The notes under the pieces were generated by a model. The model was not told where the DNA came from, did not search any database, and saw only the letters and a list, made by a program, of their open reading frames with translations. 55,970 bases of DNA from a virus. Both the position numbers and the translations under genes were made by a program. The stretch is taken from the IMG/VR virus record IMGVR_UViG_3300045988_090085, positions 1 to 55,970 of that record; one strand, written 5' to 3'. Positions 995-55,502 of this stretch are shown in pieces; within the stretch, counting starts at the first letter, position 1, and each line of letters opens with the position of its first letter.

Positions 995-1007
995 AAGTTC
1001 TCACCTC

Positions 1008-1037
1008 CCTCATATAATAGTATGTTTTGCGCGCGAA
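1008..1037 (-). promoter_or_regulatory. Promoter-like motif copy (short-leader class)
   Basis: Minus TTCGCGCGCAAAACATACTATTATATGAGG; upstream of 863..994. Confidence 0.55.
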
Positions 1038-1051
1038 GTATGTTCAATCTT

Positions 1052-1091
1052 CAGAAAAGCTAAGAGAGCCTGTTACAGCTCTCCTGCTATT
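1052..1091 (-). terminator. Family-A hairpin + T tail
   Basis: Identical 40-mer to 811..850; 3 nt after stop of 1095..1277. Confidence 0.6.
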
Positions 1092-1094
1092 GAG

Positions 1095-1277
1095 TTACTT
1101 CTTGAATGCATCTTTGATGTTCTCAACTGAATCGTATATAGCCTCTGAGTCCTTGCTCCATTCGTCTGGATATTTAGTGCTGCAACGTGCCGCGGCTATA
1201 AGTCCGCGTACCACGCCTGCACAATAGCCTATACCAGCCGCACAGATGAATAAAATCATACCTATTACTTTCTTCAT
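1095..1277 (-). CDS. Small membrane protein (60 aa, 1 TM)
   Basis: ORF track frame trimmed to ATG (MKKVIGMILFICAAG..) 8 nt after GGAGG. Confidence 0.75.
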   Translation of the reverse strand: MKKVIGMILFICAAGIGYCAGVVRGLIAAARCSTKYPDEWSKDSEAIYDSVENIKDAFKK

Positions 1278-1310
1278 GTTAAAAACCTCCAAATAATATA
1301 TTTTGAGTTT

Positions 1311-1340
1311 CCTCATAAGAGAGCGTGTTTTTTACGCGAA
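1311..1340 (-). promoter_or_regulatory. Promoter-like motif copy (long-leader class)
   Basis: Minus TTCGCGTAAAAAACACGCTCTCTTATGAGG; upstream of 1095..1277. Confidence 0.55.
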
Positions 1341-1706
1341 TCAATAGGTTATGATCGTGCATTCCATGCCATCGCCGAGCTTAGTAGCAGTCTGTTCCAT
1401 GCGATATGGAATCCTGTATCTCCGACATATTTCAGCCATGGCGTTACTCATAAGCTTTACTACCGACGGCATTGCCTCGAAGTATTTTTCTGTGATCATA
1501 TCATAGTAGAGCTCGGAAGACTCGTAAGCAATTTTATAGTGTGAAGTTTTTGTCTCAAGTTTCGTATGTGGTCTTAAGGGCCCTTTCTTATCGTTTTTTA
1601 TGACGGAAACAATTGTTGCCTGGAGACCATTTATCACAGCAATAGTAGTTACAACAAGCTCTTTTCCGTCTCCGTACTCACGGGTCATATATAATACATT
1701 GTTCAT
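1341..1706 (-). CDS. Hypothetical protein (121 aa)
   Basis: ORF track; CAGGAGG RBS. Confidence 0.75.
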   Translation of the reverse strand: MNNVLYMTREYGDGKELVVTTIAVINGLQATIVSVIKNDKKGPLRPHTKLETKTSHYKIAYESSELYYDMITEKYFEAMPSVVKLMSNAMAEICRRYRIPYRMEQTATKLGDGMECTIITY

Positions 1707-1707
1707 T

Positions 1708-2022
1708 TCAATCCTCCTGTATAATATAATCTGGATTGCGCCTACAAAGCATTATCAGATACTCAGCACGTCTATTTATGCTCTTTACATTTGTAGGCAA
1801 ATTTGAGCCAGTGGAATGATCGAATCCTTTGAATACATCCGCGTACTCTACCTGTGCTGCTATATCAGGATATTCAGTCTGCAGATCCTCCAATTCAGAC
1901 GCCCATTTTGACCAAGTAGCATCTGAAATAAGATTCTCATTGTATCCATAATAAATAACTGAGTGTGTCCAGACCTGCAATCTTCGCCTGTGGATCAATT
2001 TGGCTATCTCTTCTCTTGACAT
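1708..2022 (-). CDS. Hypothetical protein (104 aa)
   Basis: ORF track; AAAGGAG RBS; directly downstream of hairpin 2035..2074. Confidence 0.75.
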   Translation of the reverse strand: MSREEIAKLIHRRRLQVWTHSVIYYGYNENLISDATWSKWASELEDLQTEYPDIAAQVEYADVFKGFDHSTGSNLPTNVKSINRRAEYLIMLCRRNPDYIIQED

Positions 2023-2034
2023 TATAACTCCTTT

Positions 2035-2074
2035 CAGAAAAGCTAAGAGAGCCTGTTACAGCTCTCCTGCTATT
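2035..2074 (-). terminator. Family-A hairpin + T tail
   Basis: Identical 40-mer to 811..850. Confidence 0.6.
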
Positions 2075-2084
2075 CTCAGCATCC

Positions 2085-2444
2085 TTATTTCTTAAATATG
2101 CTAGTGAATATGTGCTTAAAGGTGCTCGAACAAATCGAGCCCGTTTGCTCAAATATAAACCCCTGTCTGATCCACTCCTGTTTCTTAATAAACTCCGCGA
2201 CCCCAAGGGCTAATCCGCCGACACTGACACCAGTAGTAATACTATTGATGATTGTATCGCGCTTAACCTTGGACTTTTCAGCCTCCGCATCATCACGACT
2301 CTTCTCATAGTCCGTTACCGCCTTTGTCAGATCAGCAATGCCCTTGGACATCTTTGCATAATCATCAGGTCCAAGATTCATATCAGGCAGCTCTTTTGTC
2401 TGTCTTTCGATTTCCTCTCTGATCACCTTGCTAAATTCGTCCAT
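2085..2444 (-). CDS. Hypothetical protein (119 aa), coiled N-terminal half, hydrophobic segment near C-terminus
   Basis: ORF track; AAGGAAG RBS. Confidence 0.7.
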   Translation of the reverse strand: MDEFSKVIREEIERQTKELPDMNLGPDDYAKMSKGIADLTKAVTDYEKSRDDAEAEKSKVKRDTIINSITTGVSVGGLALGVAEFIKKQEWIRQGFIFEQTGSICSSTFKHIFTSIFKK

Positions 2445-2480
2445 ATTTACATCTTCCTTTCAAAAAATATTGGGATGCTC

Positions 2481-2510
2481 TCCCATAAAACAGGTTGATT
2501 TTATCGCGAA
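2481..2510 (-). promoter_or_regulatory. Promoter-like motif copy (long-leader class)
   Basis: Minus TTCGCGATAAAATCAACCTGTTTTATGGGA; upstream of 2085..2444. Confidence 0.5.
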
Positions 2511-2552
2511 AAAAAACTAAGACCCCATGTATTTCTACATAGAGTCTTATTC
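2509..2552 (-). terminator. Family-B hairpin + T8 tract
   Basis: Plus AAGACCCCATGTATTTCTACATAGAGTCTT: outer AGAC/GTCT and inner ATGTA/TACAT stems; minus strand then reads TTAGTTTTTTTTCGCG. Confidence 0.55.
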
Positions 2553-2555
2553 TGA

Positions 2556-2753
2556 TTATTTATGAATATATGCGATTACGTCAGCATACTTATTAGGTCT
2601 AAGTCCCATCATACGGAATCCGGTGCAGAATATCGAATACCCAATCTTACCAATTATATTTAAATCAGTAAACTCATCGGCTTTCCAAAATCCACCCAGG
2701 ACCCACAATTTGGACCCAATTATGCCAAGTATATGACCAATACATTTTTTCAT
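2556..2753 (-). CDS. Small hydrophobic protein (65 aa)
   Basis: ORF track; GAGGAGGTG RBS. Confidence 0.7.
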   Translation of the reverse strand: MKKCIGHILGIIGSKLWVLGGFWKADEFTDLNIIGKIGYSIFCTGFRMMGLRPNKYADVIAYIHK

Positions 2754-2763
2754 ATTATCACCT

Positions 2764-2793
2764 CCTCATATAATAGTATGTTTCAGTCGCGAC
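2764..2793 (-). promoter_or_regulatory. Promoter-like motif copy (short-leader class); overlaps the 3' end of 2783..3007
   Basis: Minus GTCGCGACTGAAACATACTATTATATGAGG; upstream of 2556..2753. Confidence 0.5.
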
Positions 2794-3007
2794 TCACTTT
2801 GAGTATCACCTTGTTTGTGTTCTCGAACTGGGCTGGCGAATCGGCATCAATTTCAATACTGAACATGTCTTTGTTAGGGTCTTTAGTGTTAACATGAAGC
2901 ACACCAAATCTGACCTTTGTACCAAGACCAGAAATCACTACCGTGAGAGCCATACCGCATGCAAGTCCCATCGACCATATGATAACGGCTACTATGTAGA
3001 ATGTCAT
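2783..3007 (-). CDS. Small membrane protein (74 aa, N-terminal TM)
   Basis: ORF track frame trimmed to ATG (MTFYIVAVIIW..) 6 nt after GGAGGTG. Confidence 0.7.
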   Translation of the reverse strand: MTFYIVAVIIWSMGLACGMALTVVISGLGTKVRFGVLHVNTKDPNKDMFSIEIDADSPAQFENTNKVILKVSRD

Positions 3008-3023
3008 TTTGATCACCTCCTTT

Positions 3024-3067
3024 CAGAAAAAGCTAAGAGAGCCTGTTACAGGCTCTCCTGCGTTGAG
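3024..3067 (-). terminator. Family-A hairpin (perfect 9-bp stem, 3-nt loop) + T tail
   Basis: Plus GAGAGCCTG-TTA-CAGGCTCTC; 1 nt after stop of 3069..3239. Confidence 0.6.
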
Positions 3068-3068
3068 T

Positions 3069-3239
3069 TCATTCGATTACCTTATCGATGTCGTCATCAC
3101 TTTCAAGTTTAGCAGAATGATCACGCAGCTGTATGAGACTAAACACACATCCAATAATCGGTAACATAATTACCGCATAGATGATGGTGTCCTTTACAGT
3201 TATCTGATGATTCATAAACTTCATAAACTTTTCTTTCAT
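3069..3239 (-). CDS. Small membrane protein (56 aa, 1 TM)
   Basis: ORF track frame trimmed to ATG (MKEKFMKFMNH..) after GGAGG. Confidence 0.7.
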   Translation of the reverse strand: MKEKFMKFMNHQITVKDTIIYAVIMLPIIGCVFSLIQLRDHSAKLESDDDIDKVIE

Positions 3240-3274
3240 AATAAAAACCTCCAATAATATAGTTTCGGATTTCT

Positions 3275-3304
3275 CCTCATAAAAGAGTGTGTTTATTACG
3301 CGAG
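3275..3304 (-). promoter_or_regulatory. Promoter-like motif copy (long-leader class)
   Basis: Minus CTCGCGTAATAAACACACTCTTTTATGAGG; upstream of 3069..3239. Confidence 0.55.
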
Positions 3305-3340
3305 AAAAAGGAAGAGCGCTTGTTATCGCGCTCCTGCCTG
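3302..3340 (-). terminator. Family-A variant hairpin with compensatory stem (GAGCGC/GCGCTC)
   Basis: Plus GAGCGCTTGTTATCGCGCTC; the stop codon of 3323..3502 lies in the loop. Confidence 0.55.
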
Positions 3341-3502
3341 TTCGAGGATTGTCTCTCTTACAAAATCGAGTTCTTCCATCATTTCTTTCTTAAGTCTTTC
3401 TGCTCTCACCCAATTTACTACGTACATGATTCCTGCTACAATTCCTGAAATTACAGCTGCCACGCCCATAACAATTGTTGCTACCTTAAAAACCTTTTTC
3501 AT
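3323..3502 (-). CDS. Small membrane protein (59 aa, 1 TM)
   Basis: ORF track frame trimmed to ATG (MKKVFKVATIV..) after GGAGTG. Confidence 0.7.
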   Translation of the reverse strand: MKKVFKVATIVMGVAAVISGIVAGIMYVVNWVRAERLKKEMMEELDFVRETILEQAGAR

Positions 3503-3536
3503 AATAAAACACTCCAAATTATATTTTAGGATTTCT

Positions 3537-3566
3537 CCTCATAAAGGAGCATGTAATTTACGCGAA
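3537..3566 (-). promoter_or_regulatory. Promoter-like motif copy (long-leader class)
   Basis: Minus TTCGCGTAAATTACATGCTCCTTTATGAGG; upstream of 3323..3502. Confidence 0.55.
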
Positions 3567-3599
3567 ATGCTAAGAGAGCCTGTTACAGCTCTCGTTCGC
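3564..3599 (-). terminator. Family-A hairpin
   Basis: Plus GAGAGCCTGTTACAGCTCTC, 3 nt after stop of 3602..3748. Confidence 0.55.
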
Positions 3600-3601
3600 T
3601 C

Positions 3602-3748
3602 TCAATTACAAATTTTGTCATACCATATGTCAATAACTTCTTTTACATAGTCCGTGCTTACATCATATTTCACGGCGATATCCTCTATTGAATATCCGTC
3701 GTGATACATGTAACAAACATCTTCCATAAAATTTTTCATTGCTGACAT
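3602..3748 (-). CDS. Small helix-turn-helix-like protein (48 aa), below track cutoff
   Basis: Hand translation MSAMKNFMEDVCYMYHDGYSIEDIAVKYDVSTDYVKEVIDIWYDKICN*; GGAG RBS; YSIEDIAVKYDVSTDYV looks like an HTH. Confidence 0.55.
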   Translation of the reverse strand: MSAMKNFMEDVCYMYHDGYSIEDIAVKYDVSTDYVKEVIDIWYDKICN

Positions 3749-3761
3749 TTTGATCAACTCC

Positions 3762-3791
3762 TTTCATAAGAGAGCGTGATTTTGTCGCGAC
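3762..3791 (-). promoter_or_regulatory. Promoter-like motif copy (short-leader class) containing the 18-bp palindrome ATTTTGTCGCGACAAAAT
   Basis: Minus GTCGCGACAAAATCACGCTCTCTTATGAAA; upstream of 3602..3748. Confidence 0.55.
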
Positions 3792-3830
3792 AAAATTTAG
3801 AGGCCATGTTTCCACAGCCTCATAGAATTA
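3791..3830 (-). terminator. Family-C hairpin (GAGGC/GCCTC)
   Basis: Plus TTTAGAGGCCATGTTTCCACAGCCTCATAGA; overlaps stop of 3828..4034; near-identical copy at 4960. Confidence 0.5.
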
Positions 3831-4034
3831 CTTGTCTAAATCATCGGAATCCCAATCATATTTTGAGATCGCAATGAAAGCGGCTCCCGTAAGTACCGCC
3901 TGAATTGGCCATATCCATGGCCCGTGTAGTAAGTGCCATGAAAGTACCATGGCCCCTCCACTAACCCAGAATATGATCGTTTTCATTGCGATCTTCCAGA
4001 AATCGTTTTTGTACCTTTCCCAAATTTTCTTCAT
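3828..4034 (-). CDS. Small membrane protein (68 aa, 2 TM)
   Basis: ORF track; AAAGGAGG RBS. Confidence 0.75.
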   Translation of the reverse strand: MKKIWERYKNDFWKIAMKTIIFWVSGGAMVLSWHLLHGPWIWPIQAVLTGAAFIAISKYDWDSDDLDK

Positions 4035-4064
4035 AATAAATTCCTCCTTTATTTAGTTGAGTTT

Positions 4065-4094
4065 CCTCATAATAGGAGATGTTCGGTACGCGAA
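4065..4094 (-). promoter_or_regulatory. Promoter-like motif copy (long-leader class)
   Basis: Minus TTCGCGTACCGAACATCTCCTATTATGAGG; upstream of 3828..4034. Confidence 0.55.
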
Positions 4095-4133
4095 AAGCTA
4101 AGACTCCATGTATTTCTACACAGAGTCTGTCGC
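4093..4133 (-). terminator. Family-B hairpin (AGACTC/GAGTCT)
   Basis: Plus AGACTCCATGTATTTCTACACAGAGTCT, then TTAGCTTTTCGCG on the minus strand. Confidence 0.55.
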
Positions 4134-4135
4134 TC

Positions 4136-4360
4136 TTATTTTCGGAATATTGTCTTAAGAAATCTCCTCAGCCCAACATGCTGATAAAGTTCGTAAAGTA
4201 TCTCATCAATATTATGTTCGACCTCATTGGGACTTAACTTGAGATCCGTTGCAATACTTTTAATACTGCGTCTCTCCATAAGTCCTAATAATATCTTACC
4301 ATTTTGATGAGATATCTTCTCTCTCTTTTCAGCTGTTAACGCCCATTTTTCTATAAACAT
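4136..4360 (-). CDS. Small HTH protein (74 aa), LuxR/sigma-region-4-like
   Basis: ORF track frame trimmed to ATG (MFIEKWALT..); SIKSIATDLKLSPNEVEHNIDEILYEL resembles a GerE-type HTH. Confidence 0.55.
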   Translation of the reverse strand: MFIEKWALTAEKREKISHQNGKILLGLMERRSIKSIATDLKLSPNEVEHNIDEILYELYQHVGLRRFLKTIFRK

Positions 4361-4372
4361 ATAAACACATCC

Positions 4373-4402
4373 TTTCATTAAATAGAATGTTTTATGCGCG
4401 AA
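4373..4402 (-). promoter_or_regulatory. Promoter-like motif copy (short-leader class)
   Basis: Minus TTCGCGCATAAAACATTCTATTTAATGAAA; upstream of 4136..4360. Confidence 0.5.
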
Positions 4403-4433
4403 AAAGAAGAGAGCTTGTTAGCTCTCTTTATTG
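4400..4433 (-). terminator. Family-A short hairpin (GAGAGC/GCTCTC)
   Basis: Plus GAGAGCTTGTTAGCTCTC; the stop codon of 4418..4588 is the loop TAA. Confidence 0.55.
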
Positions 4434-4588
4434 TTGTTAAAAAACATGTCCTTAATTACATATAGTAATGTAATCATTCCTAACAATACCTCCGGGATAG
4501 TAGAATCTATTGCCGATGCAATAAACGCAGCTATTCCTATAATTCCTATTGTTATTATTAAAATCATTACCTTCGCTTTTGTTGACAT
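4418..4588 (-). CDS. Small membrane protein (56 aa, 2 hydrophobic segments), below track cutoff
   Basis: Hand translation MSTKAKVMILIITIGIIGIAAFIASAIDSTIPEVLLGMITLLYVIKDMFFNNNKES*; AAAGGGG RBS. Confidence 0.6.
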   Translation of the reverse strand: MSTKAKVMILIITIGIIGIAAFIASAIDSTIPEVLLGMITLLYVIKDMFFNNNKES

Positions 4589-4601
4589 ATAAATCAACCC
4601 C

Positions 4602-4631
4602 TTTCATTAGAGGGTATGTTTTTGTCGCGAA
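4602..4631 (-). promoter_or_regulatory. Promoter-like motif copy (short-leader class)
   Basis: Minus TTCGCGACAAAAACATACCCTCTAATGAAA; upstream of 4418..4588. Confidence 0.5.
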
Positions 4632-4670
4632 AAGCTAAGAGCCCTAGATTTCTCTAAGACTCTCGTTTGA
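4630..4670 (-). terminator. Family-B variant hairpin with compensatory inner stem (TAGA/TCTA)
   Basis: Plus AGAGCCCTAGATTTCTCTAAGACTCT; same architecture as 4093..4133. Confidence 0.5.
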
Positions 4671-4676
4671 GTTTAC

Positions 4677-4898
4677 TCATTTAATACTTTTAAACATTGA
4701 TTCGGCTGCCTTATTATATATCACTGCCAATTTGCGCTTACGCCACATACGCTTTTTGTAAAAATCATTCATATAAAGTGCCATAGTAGCTTGCAAAAGC
4801 ATCCCGGAATCTTCCGTAATGTTAGCAGCCACCAAACAACCTTTAAGAAATTTATTACTCTTTCTAAGTGTTCTGTAAGCCTTAATGCGTTCAAACAT
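4677..4898 (-). CDS. Small basic protein (73 aa)
   Basis: ORF track frame trimmed to ATG (MFERIKAYRTL..) after GGAGG. Confidence 0.7.
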   Translation of the reverse strand: MFERIKAYRTLRKSNKFLKGCLVAANITEDSGMLLQATMALYMNDFYKKRMWRKRKLAVIYNKAAESMFKSIK

Positions 4899-4930
4899 AA
4901 TAATTACCTCCAATAAATTAATTTGAGTTT

Positions 4931-4960
4931 CCTCATAAGAGAGCGTGATTTTGTCGCGAC
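4931..4960 (-). promoter_or_regulatory. Promoter-like motif copy (long-leader class)
   Basis: Minus GTCGCGACAAAATCACGCTCTCTTATGAGG; upstream of 4677..4898. Confidence 0.55.
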
Positions 4961-4999
4961 AAAAATTAGAGGCCATGTTTCCACAGCCTCATAGAGTTA
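4960..4999 (-). terminator. Family-C hairpin (GAGGC/GCCTC)
   Basis: Part of the 74-nt unit 4933..5006, which matches 3764..3837 at 72/74. Confidence 0.5.
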
Positions 5000-5167
5000 C
5001 TTGTCTTTTTTCTTAAAGATCGCTTTAATCAGCATAACAAGTATAAATATCCCGATCACAATATCTGCAATCGGTAACAACAGTAATCCTCCTCCTGAAA
5101 TCAGGACAATGACTCCTACTGTCACCACAATTAATAATGCAATCATGACAATACAAAATGTTATCAT
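4997..5167 (-). CDS. Small membrane protein (56 aa, 2 TM), below track cutoff
   Basis: Hand translation MITFCIVMIALLIVVTVGVIVLISGGGLLLLPIADIVIGIFILVMLIKAIFKKKDK*; TAGGAGG RBS. Confidence 0.6.
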   Translation of the reverse strand: MITFCIVMIALLIVVTVGVIVLISGGGLLLLPIADIVIGIFILVMLIKAIFKKKDK

Positions 5168-5203
5168 AAATCGTACCTCCTATAAAGTAGTTTTAAGATT
5201 TTC

Positions 5204-5233
5204 TCTCATAATACAGGATGTTTCCCACGCGAC
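5204..5233 (-). promoter_or_regulatory. Promoter-like motif copy (long-leader class)
   Basis: Minus GTCGCGTGGGAAACATCCTGTATTATGAGA; upstream of 4997..5167. Confidence 0.5.
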
Positions 5234-5274
5234 GGAAAAAAGCTAAGAGAGCTTGTTACAGCTCTCTTGCGTTG
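5234..5274 (-). terminator. Family-A hairpin (GAGAGCT/AGCTCTC)
   Basis: Plus GAGAGCTTGTTACAGCTCTC immediately after stop of 5275..5556. Confidence 0.55.
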
Positions 5275-5556
5275 TTACTTGTTCGTTATCTCTTTCATCT
5301 TTTCTTTGATTCTTTTATCGATTTTCTCTTCCATTTCTGCTCTAAGCATGTACTGGAATACGTATCGGCTGTTTGTTCTCACATTAAAGAACTCCTCAGT
5401 TCCCTGCCGTCTCAGAGGATTCGTTTTAATCCAGAGTTTTTTCACCCCGGTTTCCGCAACCTCCTGATGACAAAGATCCATAAGCTCGTTAAAGTGCTGA
5501 ACTAGCCATTCGCCATTTCTTTCCCATTCATACATAAGCATATTTTTCTTTTTCAT
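5275..5556 (-). CDS. Hypothetical soluble protein (93 aa)
   Basis: ORF track frame trimmed to ATG (MKKKNMLMYEWERNG..) after GGAGG. Confidence 0.7.
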   Translation of the reverse strand: MKKKNMLMYEWERNGEWLVQHFNELMDLCHQEVAETGVKKLWIKTNPLRRQGTEEFFNVRTNSRYVFQYMLRAEMEEKIDKRIKEKMKEITNK

Positions 5557-5589
5557 AATAAAACCTCCATAAAATTTGATTGAGATTTC

Positions 5590-5619
5590 TCTCATAAGAG
5601 ACCGTGTTTATTACGCGAA
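5590..5619 (-). promoter_or_regulatory. Promoter-like motif copy (long-leader class)
   Basis: Minus TTCGCGTAATAAACACGGTCTCTTATGAGA; upstream of 5275..5556. Confidence 0.55.
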
Positions 5620-5652
5620 AAAGCTAAGAGAGCCTGTTAGCTCTCCTGCTTG
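5617..5652 (-). terminator. Family-A short hairpin
   Basis: Plus GAGAGCCTGTTAGCTCTC; the stop codon of 5637..5834 is the loop TAA. Confidence 0.55.
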
Positions 5653-5834
5653 TTTTCGTCATCCTTACATACTTCGCTGTAGAATAATACTGCGCCACCA
5701 GCCATTATTGATATGCCTAATATAAGTGCAAGTATAGCAATTCCAACGCATCCGCAACATCCTAAAATGAAGCTAATGGTTATCATGCCTGCTCCTACAA
5801 ACATATTAAGTCCGCCTAATAATTGCTTTAACAT
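5637..5834 (-). CDS. Small membrane protein (65 aa, 2 TM, Cys-rich)
   Basis: ORF track frame trimmed to ATG (MLKQLLGGLNMFVGAG..) after AAAGGAGG. Confidence 0.7.
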   Translation of the reverse strand: MLKQLLGGLNMFVGAGMITISFILGCCGCVGIAILALILGISIMAGGAVLFYSEVCKDDENKQES

Positions 5835-5870
5835 AATAAAATCCTCCTTTAAAATTTGTAATAAATTACT

Positions 5871-5900
5871 CTTCATAAAGGAGTATGTAATCAACGCGAA
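5871..5900 (-). promoter_or_regulatory. Promoter-like motif copy (long-leader class)
   Basis: Minus TTCGCGTTGATTACATACTCCTTTATGAAG; upstream of 5637..5834. Confidence 0.55.
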
Positions 5901-34206: not shown

Positions 34207-36975
34207 TCACTCCTTTCCTTTAACATAAGCAGAAACAGTTGATGAAGATACCCCAAGTGCTTCTGCAATTTCAGCAACTGTATAACCAGAGGTATTCATT
34301 GCTTTAAGTTTATTGATCTTTGCATCAGAGAGAGTTGTTGCAGCTCTTGGTGTAGCGCGCTTTCTTAAATCCTCAGAATCAACATACTTAAATATTTTAC
34401 CGAGTTTGCTGTCCGAAATTGCGCCTGCTTGAATCGCTTCCCATTCACGATCTGAGATCTTGATGTTGGTACGCTTAGCTCCCACCTGGATACGGGCCTT
34501 AGTAAGCTGTCTCTGACTTTCTTTCTTGATTTCACCCTTTGTCATATAGGGATTCGATGCCTTCTTAGCATCCACTGCCATGCGGGCTATGATCTGAGCT
34601 TGCCTTTCACGAGGAGCATTACGGGCTGCAGTCTTATACTGAGCCTCAAGGTTAGCTACCTCAGATGCATACTTCTTATTTGCTTCCGGACTATAGGTAA
34701 GTCGAGGCGTGTACACAGAAGCCTTGCGTGCTTCGTTTGCCAATGTCTTAAGATCATTAGCATAGTTTGCATACATATCTTCGACAACAGTTCCTGAAGA
34801 TAAAGTACGAGCATCGCGTGTTTCAGCCATCTTGGTGGAAACCTGCTGACGATGGACGGTCTCACCCTTTTTATTCACGTAAGTAGCAGGGTCTGTTGCC
34901 TGTATTTCAGCACCTTCCGGAAGTGAAGGATCATACCAAGGCTTGTCTTTCTGATTGATATGAACAGAGCCTTTTCGTTTATCTACACGTTTGTCACTCT
35001 TTGCTCGAGATATAAGTGTAGACGCACCTTCATGATATTTACCATCATCTTCATCAATGTGTCCCTGATACTTAGCTTTAAGTGCTGCTATTCTATTATC
35101 AGCTTCGGACTGCTTATAGTTCAGTCCATGCTTCTCGGCATCGATTACAACCATCGAATGTCGAACTGCACAAGCAAGTTCGTCATCGTTAGCGCCCTTC
35201 AATGTCATGTCAGTGATGAGGTTTGAAACAACACCCATTTCCTTCTGGGTCTGACCTTTGGTCATTCGTTTCATTCCTTCGATTGCAGGATATGCCATCT
35301 TAGGATCGAAGCCCTTGAGTCCAGGAAGTTCCTCTCTTGATGTTATCTTAACACCTGTATTCTTTCCATTACCAGCTGTAGGGATAACCATTACAGTATC
35401 ACCATCGAAGTCCGCTCCCGAAAGTCGATCAGCTACATCTTTTGAGATACCAACAGCATCGAGTGCATTGCCGTATGTATTTTTGCCTTGCTTATTCTTA
35501 TTATTGACTGTGAGTATAGGTATCTCAAACGTACCACCATGTGGAAATCGTATAAGCGCTACCTTTTCGCCGTCCTGATAAGTAGGCGCATAAACCTCAT
35601 CGTTCTTTATATCGGTTAGGGGTAAGATTACTTTGTAGTTCTGCCTAGGAAGTGCTGCTGCGTCAAGATGAACTGCAGTTGAATCACAGTCCGAGGCAAA
35701 GCTCGCGAGGAGCTCTCTTTTAACAACAGGATTATCCAGAGAAAGTATTTCATCAAGATCTTCCTGTCGATTCTTTATAGACAAATCAAGCTGCTTTGAA
35801 ATAAGCTGCTTATTCTGTTTGGATAAGAACTGTGCAGGAAGATGATCAGACCATTCTTCCCAATCGCCTTCCTCTCGGGTCTTATTAATAAGACTCTGCT
35901 GCTCTTTTCCATTGTCATCAGTGTACCAAGACTGACCACCACGCTCCTTGAGGAGAGCGCCGAACGGATTTTCGGGATCATCCTTGATTTTCTTGAGAAC
36001 GTCCATCTTAGGCACGTCTTTGGTTTTGTTTGTGTTGAAACGGACATCGACTCCATCAGGAAGATCGTCAGCGTAGACTGCCATTCCCTTCAGGTATCTA
36101 TTTCCGTCAACCAGAATTCGAACCTGCGCATAATGTGAATTGCCGAGGTCCAAATCTGCTACACCTCTACGGAGCTCGATTACGCCATCCTTGTTGACGC
36201 CACCGTCTTCGGCGTAGTTGATCATCAAACGCTTAGAATCCATAGATTTAGGATAAGCAAATGCCTTTTTGAACGAATCACCCTGATCATAGGAAATATA
36301 GTTCTCAACCGAATGAATTTCGTCGAAATTGAATATTTCCTTGTGTTCTGTACCAGGAGGACAGAGCGCTTTAACAGTAGTGAACTTACCAGGATTAGTA
36401 ACCTGCTCCATTCGACCATTATAAGTCGGATAACCTTCGAGTTCAAGAATATAGAGCGCAGTTTTCATCATTTCTGGCGAAACACCTAGCTGCTCAGCAA
36501 CACCTGAACCGACATCCAGTTTACCATCTTCGGCGACTCTCTTTTTGAGGAAGTCAGCTGTCTTCTGGGCCTGGTTCATGCGAGCTTCAGATGCTTCATT
36601 CAAGAGCGATCGTACTGTTGACTCAGCAATACCGCCCATACGTCTTCCGATCTCAGTAGCTCCATAACCCTTTTCAGAAAGTCTTCTTGCAGTCTCAACC
36701 TGAATAGCTCTTTCTTCGTTCTTGGCGAGAGATCGCTGAGTTCTGAACTGCGAAGTTGTAAGACCCATAGATTTAGCAACCTCGGTATCTGTCATACCAG
36801 TAGCCTTTAGTTCCTTTATACGACTGAGAAAATCACCTGCGTGCTGATAGGGATTCTCGCCAGATCCGTAAGGCCACCGACCAGATCGTCTTGGCATTCC
36901 GTAATGCTCGATAAGCCAAGGCTCTCTGTCAAGTTCCTCTTCAAAGTAGGCAAGATCTTCCATGCCCCAGATCAT
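34207..36975 (-). CDS. Putative single-subunit double-psi beta-barrel RNA polymerase (YonO / RdRP-like) with N- and C-terminal HTH modules
   Basis: aa 472-533 VALIRFPHGGTFEIPILTV..LSGADFDGDTVMVIP parallels beta-prime ..NRAPTLH..NADFDGD.. and the RdRP DbDGD loop (DFDGD = 35398..35412); HTH-like aa ~55-125 and ~893-922. Confidence 0.6.
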   Translation of the reverse strand: MIWGMEDLAYFEEELDREPWLIEHYGMPRRSGRWPYGSGENPYQHAGDFLSRIKELKATGMTDTEVAKSMGLTTSQFRTQRSLAKNEERAIQVETARRLSEKGYGATEIGRRMGGIAESTVRSLLNEASEARMNQAQKTADFLKKRVAEDGKLDVGSGVAEQLGVSPEMMKTALYILELEGYPTYNGRMEQVTNPGKFTTVKALCPPGTEHKEIFNFDEIHSVENYISYDQGDSFKKAFAYPKSMDSKRLMINYAEDGGVNKDGVIELRRGVADLDLGNSHYAQVRILVDGNRYLKGMAVYADDLPDGVDVRFNTNKTKDVPKMDVLKKIKDDPENPFGALLKERGGQSWYTDDNGKEQQSLINKTREEGDWEEWSDHLPAQFLSKQNKQLISKQLDLSIKNRQEDLDEILSLDNPVVKRELLASFASDCDSTAVHLDAAALPRQNYKVILPLTDIKNDEVYAPTYQDGEKVALIRFPHGGTFEIPILTVNNKNKQGKNTYGNALDAVGISKDVADRLSGADFDGDTVMVIPTAGNGKNTGVKITSREELPGLKGFDPKMAYPAIEGMKRMTKGQTQKEMGVVSNLITDMTLKGANDDELACAVRHSMVVIDAEKHGLNYKQSEADNRIAALKAKYQGHIDEDDGKYHEGASTLISRAKSDKRVDKRKGSVHINQKDKPWYDPSLPEGAEIQATDPATYVNKKGETVHRQQVSTKMAETRDARTLSSGTVVEDMYANYANDLKTLANEARKASVYTPRLTYSPEANKKYASEVANLEAQYKTAARNAPRERQAQIIARMAVDAKKASNPYMTKGEIKKESQRQLTKARIQVGAKRTNIKISDREWEAIQAGAISDSKLGKIFKYVDSEDLRKRATPRAATTLSDAKINKLKAMNTSGYTVAEIAEALGVSSSTVSAYVKGKE

Positions 36976-37529
36976 ATTACTCCTCCTTCCTGTTTAGTTA
37001 TGATATCAGAGAATCGTATTGCCTTATCCATAATATATTTTATGCGCTCTGGCTCAGGATTATGAATCACAACCTGATTGTTCTGATATATGCGTAATTC
37101 CATCTCAAGATCAGCCGGATTCTTCTTATACTCCAGACAGAACAAAGCTGCATATATTTCAAGCTGCTCCATGTGTGCTGGAACTACCCCAGTCTTGAGA
37201 TCATGTATTCTCAGCATATTTTTTCGGAAACTTATGGCATCAGCCGTTCCAAAACAATAAGGAGAATAATATAATATTCTCTCAGGTGTCATCTTGTAGC
37301 CAATTGCGTCATTGACATAAAGATTGAGAGTCGCGTTGGTTTTCTGCAGCTTTACGCCAAGCTTAATACACTGTGCTGCAAGAGCGTGAAGTTCAGTTCC
37401 CTGAGCAGCTGCAAGGAAATTATTGCGAGTTTCCATGAGCTTGTCTTCGTCATAGTTTACCCAAGAATATTTACTCGCCGAGAGAAAGGCATGTTTACCT
37501 TCAAGCTTGGAATGATCGTTCCATATCAT
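36972..37529 (-). CDS. PD-(D/E)XK nuclease (RecB/Cas4-like core, no Cys cluster)
   Basis: GTADAISF..LRIHDLKTG..HMEQLEIYAALF = D..DxK..QxxxY; ATG after AAGGAGG. Confidence 0.6.
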   Translation of the reverse strand: MIWNDHSKLEGKHAFLSASKYSWVNYDEDKLMETRNNFLAAAQGTELHALAAQCIKLGVKLQKTNATLNLYVNDAIGYKMTPERILYYSPYCFGTADAISFRKNMLRIHDLKTGVVPAHMEQLEIYAALFCLEYKKNPADLEMELRIYQNNQVVIHNPEPERIKYIMDKAIRFSDIITKQEGGVI

Positions 37530-37812
37530 TGAGTACGGCCTCCTTATTCTCAGGGTAAATAAATGATGCATAGGACATGTTGTTCATCGTATCAACATAA
37601 TAATCCTGATTGGGTTGATGAGACGCTTCGGCATCTCTCTTACATTCAAGAGCTGCCCAGTGTCCTTGATGTAAAACAAGTAAATCTGGGATACCCTGAA
37701 TGTGATTTGGATCAGTCTTTAAAACCAGGCATCCTTCGAACCGATGCTTGATCTCTTTGACTAAACCAGATTGGAAGTCTCGTTCCAATTTGTTAGGGGA
37801 TCGTCCTTTCAT
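37501..37812 (-). CDS. VRR-NUC domain nuclease
   Basis: ERDFQSGLVKEI..GIPDLLVL..ALECKR pattern; ATG after AAAGGAG. Confidence 0.65.
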   Translation of the reverse strand: MKGRSPNKLERDFQSGLVKEIKHRFEGCLVLKTDPNHIQGIPDLLVLHQGHWAALECKRDAEASHQPNQDYYVDTMNNMSYASFIYPENKEAVLNDMERSFQA

Positions 37813-37832
37813 GAAAATTCTCCTTTCAAATA

Positions 37833-37947
37833 TTTTGAGCAGGACCCAGCAGGTTGAAAGAGGAAGATAAGATGGAGGTCCAAACCATGGGTCGTCAGGG
37901 ATTGGAGGATATATCAACATATGGAGGTCGCCAAGTCCTGCTCAAAA
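37833..37947 (-). promoter_or_regulatory. Leader element: perfect 13-bp inverted repeat (TTTTGAGCAGGAC/GTCCTGCTCAAAA) enclosing 89 nt with three CCTCCA motifs
   Basis: Read directly; 3' arm ends 4 nt before TTGAAAGGAG, the RBS of 37501..37812. Confidence 0.55.
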
Positions 37948-37982
37948 GATAAGAGAGAAAGTAGTTATTGTCTCTTTCTCTC
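37943..37982 (-). terminator. Leader hairpin (9 bp GAGAGAAAG/CTTTCTCTC) + TTATCTTTT: attenuator-like
   Basis: Starts inside the 3' end of promoter-like copy 37980..38009. Confidence 0.45.
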
Positions 37983-38009
37983 CATAAAAGACCATGTTTC
38001 GCGCGCGGA
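37980..38009 (-). promoter_or_regulatory. Promoter-like motif copy heading the nuclease/RNAP operon
   Basis: Minus TCCGCGCGCGAAACATGGTCTTTTATGGAG. Confidence 0.45.
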
Positions 38010-38023
38010 CATTTATCAATCTT

Positions 38024-38446
38024 CTACCTGACGATTGGAGGCTCTGGATAGGTCAAATCTTCGACCCTAACATCCAGCGCGTTTGCTATTTTGAACATAT
38101 TACCCAGAGAAGGGCAACATGTTGCATGCATATAATTTGATATTGTTGGTTGAGATATACCCGTCTTAACCGAGAGGTCTGTCTGACTCATGCGTTTACG
38201 TGCCATGTGTCGGTTGAGTCTTAGAGCAAAACTCCTGAGATATTCATCCTCGGTATAACCTTCTTCAATGTCAACAGCAAGTACGTCAAGTCTGAAGTTC
38301 CTTCCATTCTCAGTATAGACCATTCGCTTGCCATGCATTGTGAATACAATCTCCCCATACCTAGCGTCGATGACGTCTGTAATCTCAATACCCTGCTGTA
38401 GATACTTGTCCATGTCCATCCAGAATACTTCCATTGTATAACCCAT
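38024..38446 (-). CDS. XRE-family HTH transcriptional regulator (C-terminal HTH)
   Basis: MSQTDLSVKTGISQPTISNYMHA..NMFKIANALDVRVEDL; ATG after AAGGAAGG. Confidence 0.7.
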   Translation of the reverse strand: MGYTMEVFWMDMDKYLQQGIEITDVIDARYGEIVFTMHGKRMVYTENGRNFRLDVLAVDIEEGYTEDEYLRSFALRLNRHMARKRMSQTDLSVKTGISQPTISNYMHATCCPSLGNMFKIANALDVRVEDLTYPEPPIVR

Positions 38447-38549
38447 AAAATAGCCTTCCTTTCTTGATTTGTATGAATTTTTGATAAATTGCGGTAAAAT
38501 CACAAAAATTTTAAAAATCTTTAATTAGCAACCGAAAAAATGGCATTTT

Positions 38550-38565
38550 TATTAATTTATTTATA
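38550..38565. promoter_or_regulatory. Operator-like palindrome O1 (imperfect)
   Basis: TATTAAT-TT-ATTTATA. Confidence 0.5.
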
Positions 38566-38568
38566 GCC

Positions 38569-38584
38569 TATTAATATATTAATA
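38569..38584. promoter_or_regulatory. Operator-like palindrome O2
   Basis: TATTAAT-AT-ATTAATA, perfect 7-bp arms. Confidence 0.55.
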
Positions 38585-38656: not shown

Positions 38657-38659
38657 GCC

Positions 38660-39191: not shown

Positions 39192-39221
39192 CTTCATAAA
39201 GGAGTATGTATTAATCGCGTG
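39192..39221 (-). promoter_or_regulatory. Promoter-like motif copy
   Basis: Minus CACGCGATTAATACATACTCCTTTATGAAG; upstream of 38992..39165. Confidence 0.5.
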
Positions 39222-40211: not shown

Positions 40212-40247
40212 AGAAAAGCTAAGAGAGCCTGTTATAGCTCTCTTTGC
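40212..40247 (-). terminator. Family-A hairpin
   Basis: Plus GAGAGCCTGTTATAGCTCTC; the stop codon of 40232..40603 lies in the loop. Confidence 0.55.
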
Positions 40248-40617: not shown

Positions 40618-40647
40618 TCTCATAAGAGGCAGTGTTTTCTTCGCGGA
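40618..40647 (-). promoter_or_regulatory. Promoter-like motif copy (short-leader class)
   Basis: Minus TCCGCGAAGAAAACACTGCCTCTTATGAGA; upstream of 40232..40603. Confidence 0.5.
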
Positions 40648-44197: not shown

Positions 44198-44227
44198 CCT
44201 CATAAAGGAGTATGTAATTTACGCGAT
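44198..44227 (-). promoter_or_regulatory. Promoter-like motif copy (long-leader class)
   Basis: Minus ATCGCGTAAATTACATACTCCTTTATGAGG; leader nearly identical to that of 3828..4034. Confidence 0.55.
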
Positions 44228-45791: not shown

Positions 45792-45863
45792 AAAAGACCT
45801 TGGGAATCGAACCCAAGAACTCTCGATCAACTCGAACGTGTTACCATAGTTACACCAGTCTTC
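45792..45863 (-). tRNA. tRNA-like gene, best read as tRNA-Gln(UUG) with a non-canonical anticodon loop
   Basis: Minus GAAGACT-GG-TGTA-ACTATGGT-AACA-C-GTTCG-AGTTGAT-CGAGA-GTTC-TTGGG-TTCGATT-CCCAA-GGTCTTT-T; canonical T arm and GG D-loop; G at positions 8 and 33. Confidence 0.6.
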
Positions 45864-47117
45864 TCATAATACACCATGCATTTTTCGCGAATTATTGTTG
45901 AAGGACTCGTAGAATCGTCCTTCATTGAATTTACCCTTAGCCTTCAAAGCTCTGGTTATTGCCCTGTCGATTGGACTTCTCGATACAAGATGATAATACC
46001 ACAGATTCATATAAGGCGTATTGAGGCGATCAATTCGTCCCTGTGCTTGGTTCATTATTCGCCAACTATAATTCTGAGAGTAGAATATTATAGTATCGGT
46101 AGTGATACAATTCCAACCCTCGGCACCTGCAGCATAATTGACCAAATAAACCCATTTACTTGATGTAGGGACGGGTTCGTGCTTATGCCCATTCCACTCA
46201 GCAATTTCTATGTCATCGCCATAATCAATAGACTTGAGTATATCCAACTCGAAATCATAATTGTAGAAGATGATGGCAGTGGGATGCTTCTCAATCAATT
46301 CAAGTAGAGCTACCACGCGACTCTCATCACTAAAAGTAATCTGTCGAAGAACACTACAGAATTGTGCAGCATTTTCTATAGGCTCTCCTTCCAAATTTTG
46401 CCGTGTCTTAATGACTTGCGTTATCAACTCGCCATCATATCTAACAGCAATTTCTTCGTGGTGAGAGGTTGTCTTCCGCTTGAAATCCATATCCACAAGT
46501 AATTCATCTCGATGCTGGATAAGCAATTCGACATTTATATATTGCAGCACTTGAGGGAATGTGGTTCTCGGATTATAGACAATGTGATAATACTCGAACT
46601 CGCTTTTATTTCGGTAGAACCCATTGGCAATGAATACCGCCATGTAGTCCTCCCATTTGTCGCCAGGAGTAGCGGATAACAGTACCCATTCGTTATTCCT
46701 AGCAATCTTTATAAAGGTTTTTGCCCATTTTCCGTATCCAACGACACGCTGTTCGTCAAATATGAAGAAGGCATCTTTAACATTGACATATTTTTCTATA
46801 TTATTCCAACTGTCAACAATTACTTGATTATCGTATTCATTAGCATCTGGATGTGGAGACAGCAAGAATGGTGCCATATCGACCGACCATTCTGCCGTAT
46901 CTCTCTTCCTAGCAGTTGTAATAATATATAAGTCTTTTGGGCGGGTCATCATAGAAAACTTCTTAGAAGTGTCATACAAATCACCACCCATTCGACTGTA
47001 ATAGTATGCCAACGATGTCCGGCTTTTACCAGAGCCAACTCCGCCACAGAGAATGCAACCATTATGCATTTTTCTTATAGCATCGAGTTGATAATCATAC
47101 ATTGGTACACTACTCAT
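45864..47117 (-). CDS. SF2 (SNF2/DEAD-like) helicase
   Basis: GGVGSGKS (Walker A), FIFDEQ (DExx box), ..QAQGRIDR.. (motif VI). Confidence 0.75.
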   Translation of the reverse strand: MSSVPMYDYQLDAIRKMHNGCILCGGVGSGKSRTSLAYYYSRMGGDLYDTSKKFSMMTRPKDLYIITTARKRDTAEWSVDMAPFLLSPHPDANEYDNQVIVDSWNNIEKYVNVKDAFFIFDEQRVVGYGKWAKTFIKIARNNEWVLLSATPGDKWEDYMAVFIANGFYRNKSEFEYYHIVYNPRTTFPQVLQYINVELLIQHRDELLVDMDFKRKTTSHHEEIAVRYDGELITQVIKTRQNLEGEPIENAAQFCSVLRQITFSDESRVVALLELIEKHPTAIIFYNYDFELDILKSIDYGDDIEIAEWNGHKHEPVPTSSKWVYLVNYAAGAEGWNCITTDTIIFYSQNYSWRIMNQAQGRIDRLNTPYMNLWYYHLVSRSPIDRAITRALKAKGKFNEGRFYESFNNNSRKMHGVL

Positions 47118-55056: not shown

Positions 55057-55095
55057 CAGAAAAGCTAAGAGAGCCTGTTACAGCTCTCTCGCTTG
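55057..55095 (-). terminator. Family-A hairpin + T tail
   Basis: Plus CAGAAAAGCTAAGAGAGCCTGTTACAGCTCTC, 6 nt after stop of 55102..55434. Confidence 0.6.
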
Positions 55096-55472: not shown

Positions 55473-55502
55473 TCTCATAAGAGAGTGTGTTTTTATCGCG
55501 AA
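55473..55502 (-). promoter_or_regulatory. Promoter-like motif copy (long-leader class)
   Basis: Minus TTCGCGATAAAAACACACTCTCTTATGAGA; upstream of 55102..55434. Confidence 0.55.

Follow-up and report, generated by a model that had tools for sequence, protein, structure and literature searches.

Genome organization and a recurrent 30-bp element

The viral genome analyzed here (IMG/VR record IMGVR_UViG_3300045988_090085, positions 1 to 55,970, hereafter the window) carries many copies of a 30-bp element, TTCGCG-N16-TTATGAGG, together with a gene for a 922-residue protein resembling single-chain RNA polymerases (RNAPs) that was proposed to read it. The first and last 119 bases of the window are identical (1-119 and 55852-55970), so that the contig was assembled as a circle, or with terminal redundancy, and its unit length is 55,851 bp. 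The genes called in the window lie on the minus strand, as do all window features described below. Small genes are arranged in cassettes in 1-5.9 kb, a 32-kb structural block extends over 6-37.9 kb, and the polymerase-like gene is located at 34207..36975. No match to 20 kb of the window was obtained by megablast against the phage collection.

The skeleton of the element, CGCG-N7-CA-N9-ATG, was found 20 times on the minus strand, the coding strand, and was absent from the plus strand, compared with 0.22 +/- 0.44 matches (maximum two) in dinucleotide-preserving shuffles of the window. An initial annotation made from the sequence alone had described this skeleton as invariant and had listed 19 coordinates, each of which proved to be the low end of a genuine 30-bp site on the minus strand; a twentieth site, absent from that list, was located at 45862-45891. 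A weight matrix was built from the sites and both strands of the window were scanned. The resulting scores were bimodal: the 20 sites scored between 30.7 and 46.6 bits, the next best match scored 5.1 bits, and shuffle maxima did not exceed 9.9 bits. The sites had been called intergenic, and this is the case for 19 of the 20, each lying in a gap upstream of a gene; the exception is the added site, which overlaps the last codons and stop of a 417-residue helicase-like open reading frame (ORF). Fourteen sites fall within 1.0-5.9 kb and none inside the structural block, as originally described. The accompanying statement that the replicase region is also free of copies needs amending at the edge of that region, where the added site (45.86 kb) precedes a tRNA-like gene that it would drive. 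Given the 119-bp terminal overlap, the 14-site array, followed from 5.9 to 1.0 kb, continues directly into the site at 55.5 kb.

Positions in the element were indexed from the first C of CGCG (index 0), which places the G of the motif ATG at index 24. The profile consists of T at -1, CGCG at 0-3, an A-rich tract at 7-10, an invariant CA at 11-12, a pyrimidine at 13, and C-T-C-T-Y-T-T-A-T-G-A at 15-25, with only purines at 25-29. Variable columns lie between the fixed ones, and the conservation is therefore position-specific rather than plain repeat identity. A conserved inverted repeat is absent from the element, with GCG...CGC pairing available in only some sites.

The array begins at 5871..5900 and continues with sites at 5590..5619, 5204..5233, 4931..4960, 4602..4631, 4373..4402, 4065..4094, 3762..3791, 3537..3566, 3275..3304, 2764..2793, 2481..2510, 1311..1340 (the best matrix match, 46.6 bits) and 1008..1037. 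Outside the array are the site at 37980..38009, hereafter the late site, which lies about 1 kb upstream of the polymerase-like gene and is the best conserved one in relatives; 39192..39221, with a leader of 30 nt; 40618..40647; 44198..44227, with a long leader of 34 nt to the ATG of a 62-residue ORF having a transmembrane-like segment; the added site at 45862..45891; and 55473..55502 (44.5 bits), which would drive a 110-residue ORF at 55434..55102. Two spacing classes had been recognized among the sites and both were recovered, the start codon lying 14-18 nt past the G of the ATG in six sites and 30-42 nt past it in 12. The conserved leader block GAGGAAACTCAA reported for the long class does occur, in exact form in only four of the long-leader sites.

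Terminator-flanked cassettes of small genes

Within 1-5.9 kb the same order of features is repeated: a hairpin and T-run terminator of the previous gene, the T(T)CGCG of the element and the rest of the element, a leader, a Shine-Dalgarno (SD) sequence, and a gene. Thirteen such terminators lie between the small genes, at 821-844, 1062-1085, 2045-2068, 2518-2549, 3035-3059, 3312-3335, 3800-3821, 4101-4128, 4407-4428, 4969-4990, 5052-5074, 5245-5268 and 5626-5647. Most of them abut the T(T)CGCG of the next element and, since the terminator runs into the next element, each small gene would form its own transcription unit. A scan of the window returned 24 terminator-like sites against 3.4 expected, and a separate terminator scan returned 18 on the minus strand and three on the plus strand, with 13 of them in 0.8-5.7 kb and no credible terminator in the 6-37.9 kb structural block. 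Terminators of the same family are found outside the array at 40221..40244 and 55067..55090. Taken with the absence of sites from the structural block, the orientation of every site toward a gene, with a terminator upstream and an SD sequence or gene downstream, agrees with the suggestion of the initial annotation that the element is a phage promoter.

Matches to a sigma-70-type promoter in the array region numbered 29, a modest excess over shuffles (19.7 +/- 4.5), and were mostly on the non-coding strand; the best of them are on the wrong strand or within genes. A transmembrane-like hydrophobic segment was present in about half of the small ORFs checked, which included array genes and other genes preceded by the element. 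At least eight of the terminators are near-identical copies of AGGAGAGCTGTAACAGGCTCTCTTAGCTTTT (821-844, 1062-1085, 2045-2068, 3035-3059, 5245-5268, 5626-5647, 40221-40244 and 55067-55090), and such identical modules suggest duplication or exchange of cassettes. At three of these copies (844, 2068 and 3059) the next SD sequence and gene follow without an element; the genes behind them would reflect either partial termination or dependence on read-through.

Position of the transcription start

The initial annotation had placed the start at or near the ATGA of the element, and three independent constraints derived from the sequence support this placement: SD sequences, tRNA-like genes, and the leader hairpin of the late site. 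In the six short-leader sites a good SD sequence (GAGGAGG, AAGGAG or AAGGGG) begins 0-4 nt past the G of the ATG. The shortest leader is that of 2764..2793, where the SD sequence starts at the G itself and the start codon lies at +14; the SD sequence also starts at the G in 1008..1037, lies 2 nt past it in 3762..3791, 4373..4402 and 4602..4631, and 4 nt past it in 40618..40647, where the start codon is at +18.

The second constraint comes from the tRNA-like gene at 45792..45863, which begins 2 nt past the G of the element. This gene matched the whole Rfam model RF00005 at 29.7 bits (gathering score 29) with an anticodon loop 2 nt short, and was not detected by ARAGORN. A comparable gene occurs in the Faecalibacterium phage FP_oengus, where a feature annotated as 'tRNA-???' with a two-base 'anticodon' (locus L081, 2935-3006) begins 1 nt past the G of a copy of the element. 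Such element-fused tRNA-like RNAs could be decoys, primers or processing signals.

In relatives index 24 is G or sometimes A, giving ATA and GTA variants of the ATG, and is preceded directly by an invariant T. A pyrimidine at -1 and a purine at +1 is the typical pattern at start sites. Together these features place the predicted +1 at index 24, to within 1-2 nt, with a promoter reaching from about -26 to +6. A start at the G of the ATG excludes the sigma-70 reading of the element as TTCGCG-17-TATGAG: with TATGAG as a -10 hexamer, transcription would begin 8-10 nt past the G, which is after the SD sequence in all six short-leader sites, as had been anticipated for this class, and inside the tRNA-like genes. 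The sigma-70-like layout is coincidental. A leaderless mRNA starting from the A of the ATG was also considered and rejected, in that the ATG shares its reading frame with the gene behind it at only about one-third of the sites and is replaced by ATA or GTA in relatives.

The late site and its leader hairpin

The late site heads an operon of about 32 kb comprising endonuclease, exonuclease, polymerase-like protein and terminase, followed by portal, protease-capsid and tail genes, a 2643-residue tape measure and the remaining genes. The first gene after the site is an endonuclease (phrog_93, 37501..37920), followed by an exonuclease (phrog_3953, DUF2800, 36972..37571). No further copy of the element and no credible terminator was found downstream for about 32 kb. 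A hairpin, GGAGAGAAAG-N12-CTTTCTCTC plus TTATCTTTT (37944..37983), starts at the G of the ATG of this site.

The hairpin recurs in relatives with a different sequence and the same design, for example as GAAGAGAGAGGG...CCATTCTCTCTTTTATTTT and AGGGAGAAGATAATATA...TATTATCTTTTT. Scored as a hairpin starting at +1 to +4, closing within 25-65 nt and followed by at least four T in the next 8 nt, it was present at 45 of 61 unique late sites, compared with seven of 120 other sites of the element and three of 61 shuffles. The late site therefore has a terminator-like hairpin in the promoter-proximal position of the lambda PR'-tR' type. From its sequence the hairpin could be a promoter-proximal terminator or attenuator, or a stabilizer of the 5' end, and late expression is probably gated by read-through or antitermination at this point.

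Gene order in cultured relatives bears on the extent of the late transcript. In the Rhodococcus phage ReqiPoco6, a cos-ended genome with annotated termini, the polymerase gene occupies the far right end and the terminase gene lies near the left end, so that a late transcript has to run across the joined ends; the Gordonia phage Secretariat has the same layout. The interval from the late promoter to the polymerase gene contains a tRNA-Met gene in the relatives L056, L068, L069, L073, L076 and L077; in L056 and L068 this gene starts about 56 nt past the promoter's G. The tape measure of the window (14655-22586) contains a CW_7 cell-wall-binding repeat at residues 501-536 and a TMP_3 domain.

The element in related phages and in bacterial genomes

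A set of 80 metagenomic viral contigs encoding a polymerase 48-64% identical to that of the window was oriented with the polymerase gene on the plus strand and scanned with the window matrix at a cut-off of >12 bits. All matches fell on the plus strand and the minus strand had none; at least one match was present in 72 of the 80 loci. A relaxed regular expression gave 118 plus-strand and three minus-strand matches. In nearly all loci that included the upstream flank, a strong site (consensus CGCGCGAAAAAAACATGCCCTTTTATGAAGAG) was located about 950 bp upstream of the polymerase gene and is the counterpart of the window site at 37980-38009. Arrays of 7-14 sites were present on some of these contigs.

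The same geometry was found on the coding strand only in cultured relatives, whose polymerases are 39-50% identical over their full length. FP_oengus has 14 sites (GACGCGAAAAATRCAGCCTCCTTTATGGAAGG), Secretariat 10-11 (TTCGCAnnnATTACAYGCCCTATAATGAGACC), the Streptomyces phage OlympicHelado five in the Gordonia dialect, the Arthrobacter phage Mudcat seven (TTCGCGTAAATTACAMGGGCTATAATGAGA), the Lactococcus phage 1706 10 ((C)GCAnGTTTTACATAYACTATAGTAGAAAG), and a 6-kb fragment of ReqiPoco6 a single site of the late type. A copy lies just upstream of the endonuclease, exonuclease and polymerase genes in FP_oengus, Secretariat, Mudcat and ReqiPoco6, and was not picked up at this place in OlympicHelado or 1706. 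Phages of Firmicutes and Actinobacteria alike keep (Y)RC(R) at 0-3 and ACA at 10-12, and have T-R at 23-24 with purines after it; a host -35/-10 consensus is not the conserved part.

A strict 18-base form of the motif was then sought in one genome each of 185,579 bacterial and archaeal species, a comparison with unrelated genomes that the initial annotation had named as a check. Six loci were found in total: two phage-like contigs in metagenome-assembled genomes (MAGs), bearing arrays of 12 and seven sites, and four isolated singletons at chance level. The array contigs are CALFDJ010000037.1 in a 'Collinsella' MAG (12 copies) and CAJGCM010000003.1 in a Clostridia MAG (58 kb, seven copies), with all copies on one strand in each. 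Both are probably phage genomes of this family rather than host DNA, and it appears that no bacterium uses the motif for its own genes.

A predicted single-chain polymerase with built-in helix-turn-helix modules

The 922-residue product of 34207..36975 contains the sequence S-G-A-D-F-D-G-D-T (SGADFDGD at residues 519-526, GADFDGD at 520-526); the corresponding loop in the largest subunit of cellular RNAPs binds the metal, and bacterial beta' has the same word as NADFDGD. The catalytic DxDGD loop that characterizes two-barrel RNAPs (beta'/Rpb1, QDE-1/RdRP, YonO, crAss gp66 and P23-45 gp64/gp96) is thus present, and an alignment of 50 homologues, reaching down to 46% identity, shows GADFDGD without variation. 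Over its full length the protein belongs to phrog_4291, which by annotation only is named 'RNA-dependent RNA polymerase' (RdRP). Around the loop, the Pfam RdRP family PF05183 matched the window protein weakly (E 0.005, below the gathering score), and its C-terminal HTH matched Sigma70_r4 and Sigma70_r4_2; among seven homologues from seven host genera, PF05183 was matched in five (best E 7e-5), and Sigma70_r4 and Sigma70_r4_2 in all seven.

A structure was predicted with AlphaFold2 from an alignment of 50 sequences drawn from both the gut and the actinophage clades, with a predicted local distance difference test (pLDDT) score of 77.7 and a predicted template modeling (pTM) score of 0.63. The model and alignment indicate two helix-turn-helix (HTH) modules and a winged HTH in the N-terminal part (residues ~60-205) and a sigma-70 region-4-like HTH at the C terminus (895-919). 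The second N-terminal HTH contains an invariant E-S-x-x-R. In a search of BFVD, the model matched best to a phage protein named 'RNA dependent RNA polymerase' (980 columns at 10% identity, E 7e-7), followed by double-psi beta-barrel (DPBB; RlpA-like) domains. Eight of the 12 top matches in a structure search of the PDB were RNAP beta', Rpb1 or archaeal RpoA, none of them significant (best E 0.12, with low TM-scores). An N-terminal segment, H-Y-G-x-x-R-x-S-G-R-x-P-x-G-S-G (residues 24-39), is kept across all clades and falls in a disordered part of the model (pLDDT <50); a signal for packaging, ejection or processing is a possible role.

The family comprises 933 clusters at 50% identity (E <= 1e-30), with the best 150 mostly full length, and its members are labelled 'HTH DNA-binding protein' in most deposited genomes. 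The protein had been flagged as a possible RNAP in FP_oengus, 1706-like and actinophage genomes by Koert et al. (bioRxiv 10.1101/842583), on the basis of an HHpred match to RdRP at 95.7%, the DxDGD loop and HTHs at both ends; the same authors regarded it as a signature of the group and did not mention promoters. Among 40 window ORFs scanned, no sigma-70 region 2/3 domain and no match to the T7-type RNA_pol family PF00940 was detected, and the only other clear HTH protein was the XRE-type product of 38024..38503.

Proposed reader and mechanism

Taken together, these observations suggest that the 30-bp element is a compact promoter, extending from -26 to +6, that is read by the phage's own predicted and possibly virion-carried polymerase, a reading to which we assign a probability of about 0.7. 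The evidence that the element is a promoter is strong. The initial annotation had named the 922-residue protein as the obvious candidate reader, and the co-occurrence of the motif geometry with this protein across phages of two bacterial phyla is in its favor, making it a good candidate; the known shared content of the motif-bearing phages is a protein of this type plus a few replication and structural genes.

With +1 at the G of the ATG, the promoter would comprise T-CGCG at -25 to -21, an A-rich tract running to the invariant ACA at -16 to -12, CTCYYTTAT at -9 to -1, and the purine-only G-A-R-R-R-R at +1 to +6. The three blocks, centered at about -22.5, -13 and -3, are spaced by roughly 10 bp or one turn and would therefore face the same side of the DNA. 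HTH modules within the polymerase may bind CGCG and the A-tract/ACA as duplex, much as sigma region 4 binds the -35 element. The bubble would then have its upstream boundary at ACA, in a position like that of the -12/-11 junction in sigma-70 promoters or of AACA in phage AR9; the segment from ACA to TTAT, with its A/T-rich part from -6 to -1, would be melted and loaded into the two-barrel core with its GADFDGD loop, and synthesis would begin with G-A-R-R-R-R. The E-S-x-x-R helix of the second N-terminal HTH is a candidate reader of the invariant ACA, and the more variable C-terminal HTH a candidate reader of the CGCG and CGCA dialects.

The transcription programme proposed on this basis would consist of 14 monocistronic terminator-promoter-leader-gene cassettes for small proteins, a few promoters in the replication region including one driving a tRNA-like RNA, and one promoter heading the operon of about 32 kb. 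The polymerase gene lies in that operon, behind one of its own sites. In GenBank EU081845 the homologue in 1706 (orf75) is labelled 'structural protein', as are small ORFs scattered through the non-structural region. This pattern of labels suggests experimental assignment rather than synteny; gp106 of ReqiPoco6 is labelled 'structural protein' by similarity. The structural labels of 1706 were reportedly assigned by virion mass spectrometry, in work by Garneau and colleagues from 2008. Phage N4 and crAss-like phages package an RNAP in the virion. The polymerase may likewise be carried in the virion and start transcription on injected DNA, and a virion-carried enzyme would solve the bootstrap problem for infection, though not for prophage induction. 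A fuller version of the proposal, in which one chain of about 100 kDa unites a two-barrel core with its own HTHs as a 'holoenzyme in one chain', is carried in the virion and runs the whole programme from one class of 30-bp promoter without host polymerase, with late genes gated by the terminator at +1, is offered tentatively and stands somewhat below even odds.

Several points weigh against polymerase and promoter being matched in this way. The catalytic assignment is drawn from motifs, a weak profile match and weak fold matches. Homology to YonO, the one single-chain two-barrel RNAP proven by biochemistry, was not detected with hhalign using seven- and 50-sequence profiles (probability 0.5-0.9%, with sensitivity limited by the use of YonO as a single sequence), and PDB sequence searches with the protein or a seven-sequence profile returned HTH proteins only. 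When the C-terminal recognition helix was compared with the CGCG or CGCA dialect in seven phages, no clean covariation was found; a polar residue precedes 'ST' with CGCG and a hydrophobic one with CGCA, a pattern that 1706 breaks and that was not used as evidence at n=7. The cassettes and the late operon are preceded by the same promoter class, and an additional factor would therefore be needed for timing. At 18-23 the actinophage dialect reads TATAAT without a mismatch, and the actinophages yielded neither a short leader nor a tRNA that would exclude a -10-only start by host sigma-A about 6 nt downstream. Finally, a temperate or prophage lifestyle is common among the relatives (an integrase is encoded by FP_oengus, and many homologues lie on 100-500 kb contigs); an induced prophage has no virion enzyme and must obtain its first polymerase from another source, and a convincing sigma-A promoter for this purpose was not found in the window.

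Alternative explanations

The strongest rival is a host RNAP redirected by a phage factor in the manner of T4 MotA/AsiA, with sigma-A on the A/T-rich -10-like segment and a phage protein on CGCG/ACA; the factor would be the 922-residue protein acting solely as an HTH activator, or another small protein. This would explain how an induced prophage starts transcription without a virion enzyme. It also fits the mostly HTH-type Pfam matches of the 922-residue protein, its deposited label, the TATAAT of the actinophages, where a constraint on the start site was not found, and the TATTAT at 18-23 in some sites of the window. The Firmicute-phage sites are harder to accommodate: position 19 is A in three of 20, and the late site reads TTTTAT without the essential A at -11. 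A -10 hexamer at 18-23 would place the start near index 30, past the SD sequence in the six short-leader sites and inside the tRNA-like genes. Shifting the hexamer to CAYRCT at 11-16 does not help, this sequence always beginning with C and never with T, and its final T being lost in the late site and in all actinophages. An activator function would also leave the invariant GADFDGD and about 600 conserved core residues over more than 900 clusters hard to explain. On this balance a redirected host polymerase is considered unlikely, although it is the alternative to be taken most seriously.

An ordinary host promoter, read by sigma-A or by an alternative sigma such as a sporulation sigma, is less probable again. 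The spacing of TTCGCG-17-TATGAG mimics that of sigma-70 promoters, although TTCGCG matches only three of the six positions of TTGACA and TATGAG four of the six of TATAAT with a final G, key bases being missing from both. The -10 consensus of the sporulation sigmas sigma-E/G/K is CATAC-like, and CATACT at 11-16 with a purine 8 nt later resembles it. No conserved -35 is present at the appropriate distance from CATACT, however, and the columns from -12 to -7 each hold less than 0.5 bit. The sporulation reading was rejected on this ground and because phages of Lactococcus, Faecalibacterium and four actinobacterial genera, hosts with differing sets of sigma factors, share the geometry, and the strict motif is absent from the bacterial chromosomes scanned apart from the four chance-level singletons. 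The number of sigma-70-type matches in the array, modestly above shuffles and mostly on the non-coding strand, likewise argues against host promoters there.

Least probable of all is that the element is not a promoter and serves instead as the binding site of a small HTH repressor, an operator (the XRE-type product of 38024..38503, whose gene adjoins the late site, being one possibility) or as a cassette-boundary or recombination sequence, as the near-identical terminator-element modules might suggest: the motif lacks symmetry and, in all genomes examined, points strictly in the direction of transcription, its conservation is position-specific with variable columns between, its distances to SD sequences, tRNA-like 5' ends and the leader hairpin are fixed, no HTH or XRE label occurs among the annotated neighbors of the late site in FP_oengus or Secretariat, and the monocistronic, terminator-flanked small genes would be left promoterless.

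Comparison with known phage transcription systems

The closest parallel to a phage-encoded polymerase reading this element is found in the Thermus phage P23-45, which has a virion RNAP fused to the tape measure (gp96) and a non-virion RNAP (gp64), and in which an AT-rich and a GC-rich motif, one per enzyme, were mapped by ONT-cappable-seq and ChIP-seq (Nat Commun 2024, PMC10770324). Both are siphoviruses with a two-barrel polymerase of the RdRP/YonO-like type, predicted in the present case, and in both the motif was tied to the enzyme partly by co-occurrence in relatives. A virion-carried polymerase starts the programme in P23-45, as is only proposed here. Unlike P23-45, the window has one enzyme and one promoter class rather than two, HTH modules built into the polymerase, and a polymerase that is not fused to the tape measure and for which no sequence similarity to solved PDB chains was found; a polymerase-like region was not detected in the tape measure of the window, in contrast to that of P23-45.

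The closest analogue in function is YonO of the Bacillus prophage SPbeta. It is, as predicted for the 922-residue protein, a single chain of about 100 kDa related to multisubunit RNAPs, and both carry the DxDGD loop; its promoter and any need for extra factors were stated as unknown (Forrest et al. 2017, PMC5467207). The long late operon that YonO transcribes opens with a non-coding RNA and continues with an exonuclease gene before terminase and portal, and so resembles the late operon described here. The two differ in that homology between the proteins went undetected (hhalign <1%) and HTH fusions are not seen in YonO, which was itself not scanned for them. In addition, yonO lies upstream of its promoter rather than behind it, and SPbeta has one mapped YonO-dependent start compared with about 20 sites here. 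Two copies of TCGRMTAATRKTCATTTATGARGG about 160 bp apart were noted in the yonN-yonK gap of SPbeta (L094, ~10448 and ~10605, minus strand), the second of them within the 245-bp interval bracketed by the start-mapping (primer-extension) primers of Forrest et al. The SPbeta sequence ends in TTATGAGG like the element of the window, with an upstream spacing about 6 nt shorter, and the G of TCATTTATGAGGG would be a candidate position for the YonO start. As a related promoter it was rejected, the half-site matrix scoring 8-10 bits, no better than chance in 70 kb, and it is kept only as a lead.

The late promoter of the non-virion RNAP of phage AR9 is 5'-A(-11)ACA-N6-U-A/G(+1) (PMC5449584). Promoters of the AR9/phiKZ non-virion enzymes resemble the element in having no -35/-10 pair, an AACA word (at -15 to -12 here), and T(-1) R(+1). 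The AR9 geometry is not reproduced, however: the spacer is N10 rather than N6, 4 nt longer, and an extra CGCG lies one helical turn upstream. The AR9 enzyme furthermore has five subunits, reads the template strand and requires uracil DNA. The resemblance may be due to chance.

Like T7 promoters, the element is one class of about 25-30 bp, repeated along the genome and contiguous with the start, with purines dominating the first transcribed bases (CTCTTAT|GAGGAA here, CACTATA|GGGAGA in T7). It differs from the T7 case in that the promoter reaches to -26 and the proposed enzyme lacks the Pol I fold (no PF00940), having the GADFDGD signature instead. The absence of a conserved inverted repeat distinguishes the element from the promoters of the N4 virion RNAP, which form a hairpin with a 5-7 bp stem and a 3-nt loop. 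Late control in phage lambda involves PR', tR' and cos, with read-through dependent on Q. The late site resembles lambda PR'-tR' in having a hairpin and T-run directly after the promoter, and in a late operon that crosses the joined ends (in ReqiPoco6); unlike in lambda, the hairpin already begins at +1, so that termination there would leave an RNA of only about 40-60 nt, and the polymerase is phage-encoded.

Phage polymerases with private promoters are already known from T7, N4, phiKZ/AR9 and P23-45, and the prediction of this polymerase family dates from 2021, although no promoter was proposed for it then. Literature searches returned nothing relevant on the motif strings and, on this polymerase family, only Koert et al. 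Within the literature searched, a promoter with a family-wide geometry and dialects, the placement of the start site, and a terminator at +1 of the late promoter appear to be new. As modeled, the joining of a two-barrel core and HTH modules within a single chain sets the system apart from every characterized relative.

For the question of how single-chain two-barrel RNAPs find their promoters, the element would provide a defined promoter of about 30 bp, with natural dialects, in a large sister family of YonO. With the putative DNA-recognition modules in the same chain, the question becomes testable with one purified protein and short templates, and cultured, genetically accessible members are available in Lactococcus phage 1706, FP_oengus, and Gordonia, Arthrobacter and Streptomyces phages. 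If the proposal is correct, the system would be common to more than 900 protein clusters in Firmicutes and Actinobacteria phages, including abundant human-gut phages and hundreds of SEA-PHAGES isolates. Transcription units could then be annotated in hundreds of deposited genomes in which the enzyme is an 'HTH DNA-binding protein', the terminator-promoter cassettes of small membrane-protein genes would be explained, and a compact orthogonal expression system for Gram-positive bacteria might be obtained.

Additional features of the early and replication regions

A very AT-rich gap of 260 bp (38450-38710) lies upstream of the XRE-type HTH gene (38446..38024) and contains two copies of TTAATAGGCTAT(T/A)AAT(T/A)(T/A)ATTAATAA. 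No copy of the element and no clear sigma-A promoter was found within it; the gap could be a set of operators or a replication origin. Two DUF6353 paralogues are encoded in the early/replication region, at 53493-54410 and 55503-55916, and FP_oengus has three.

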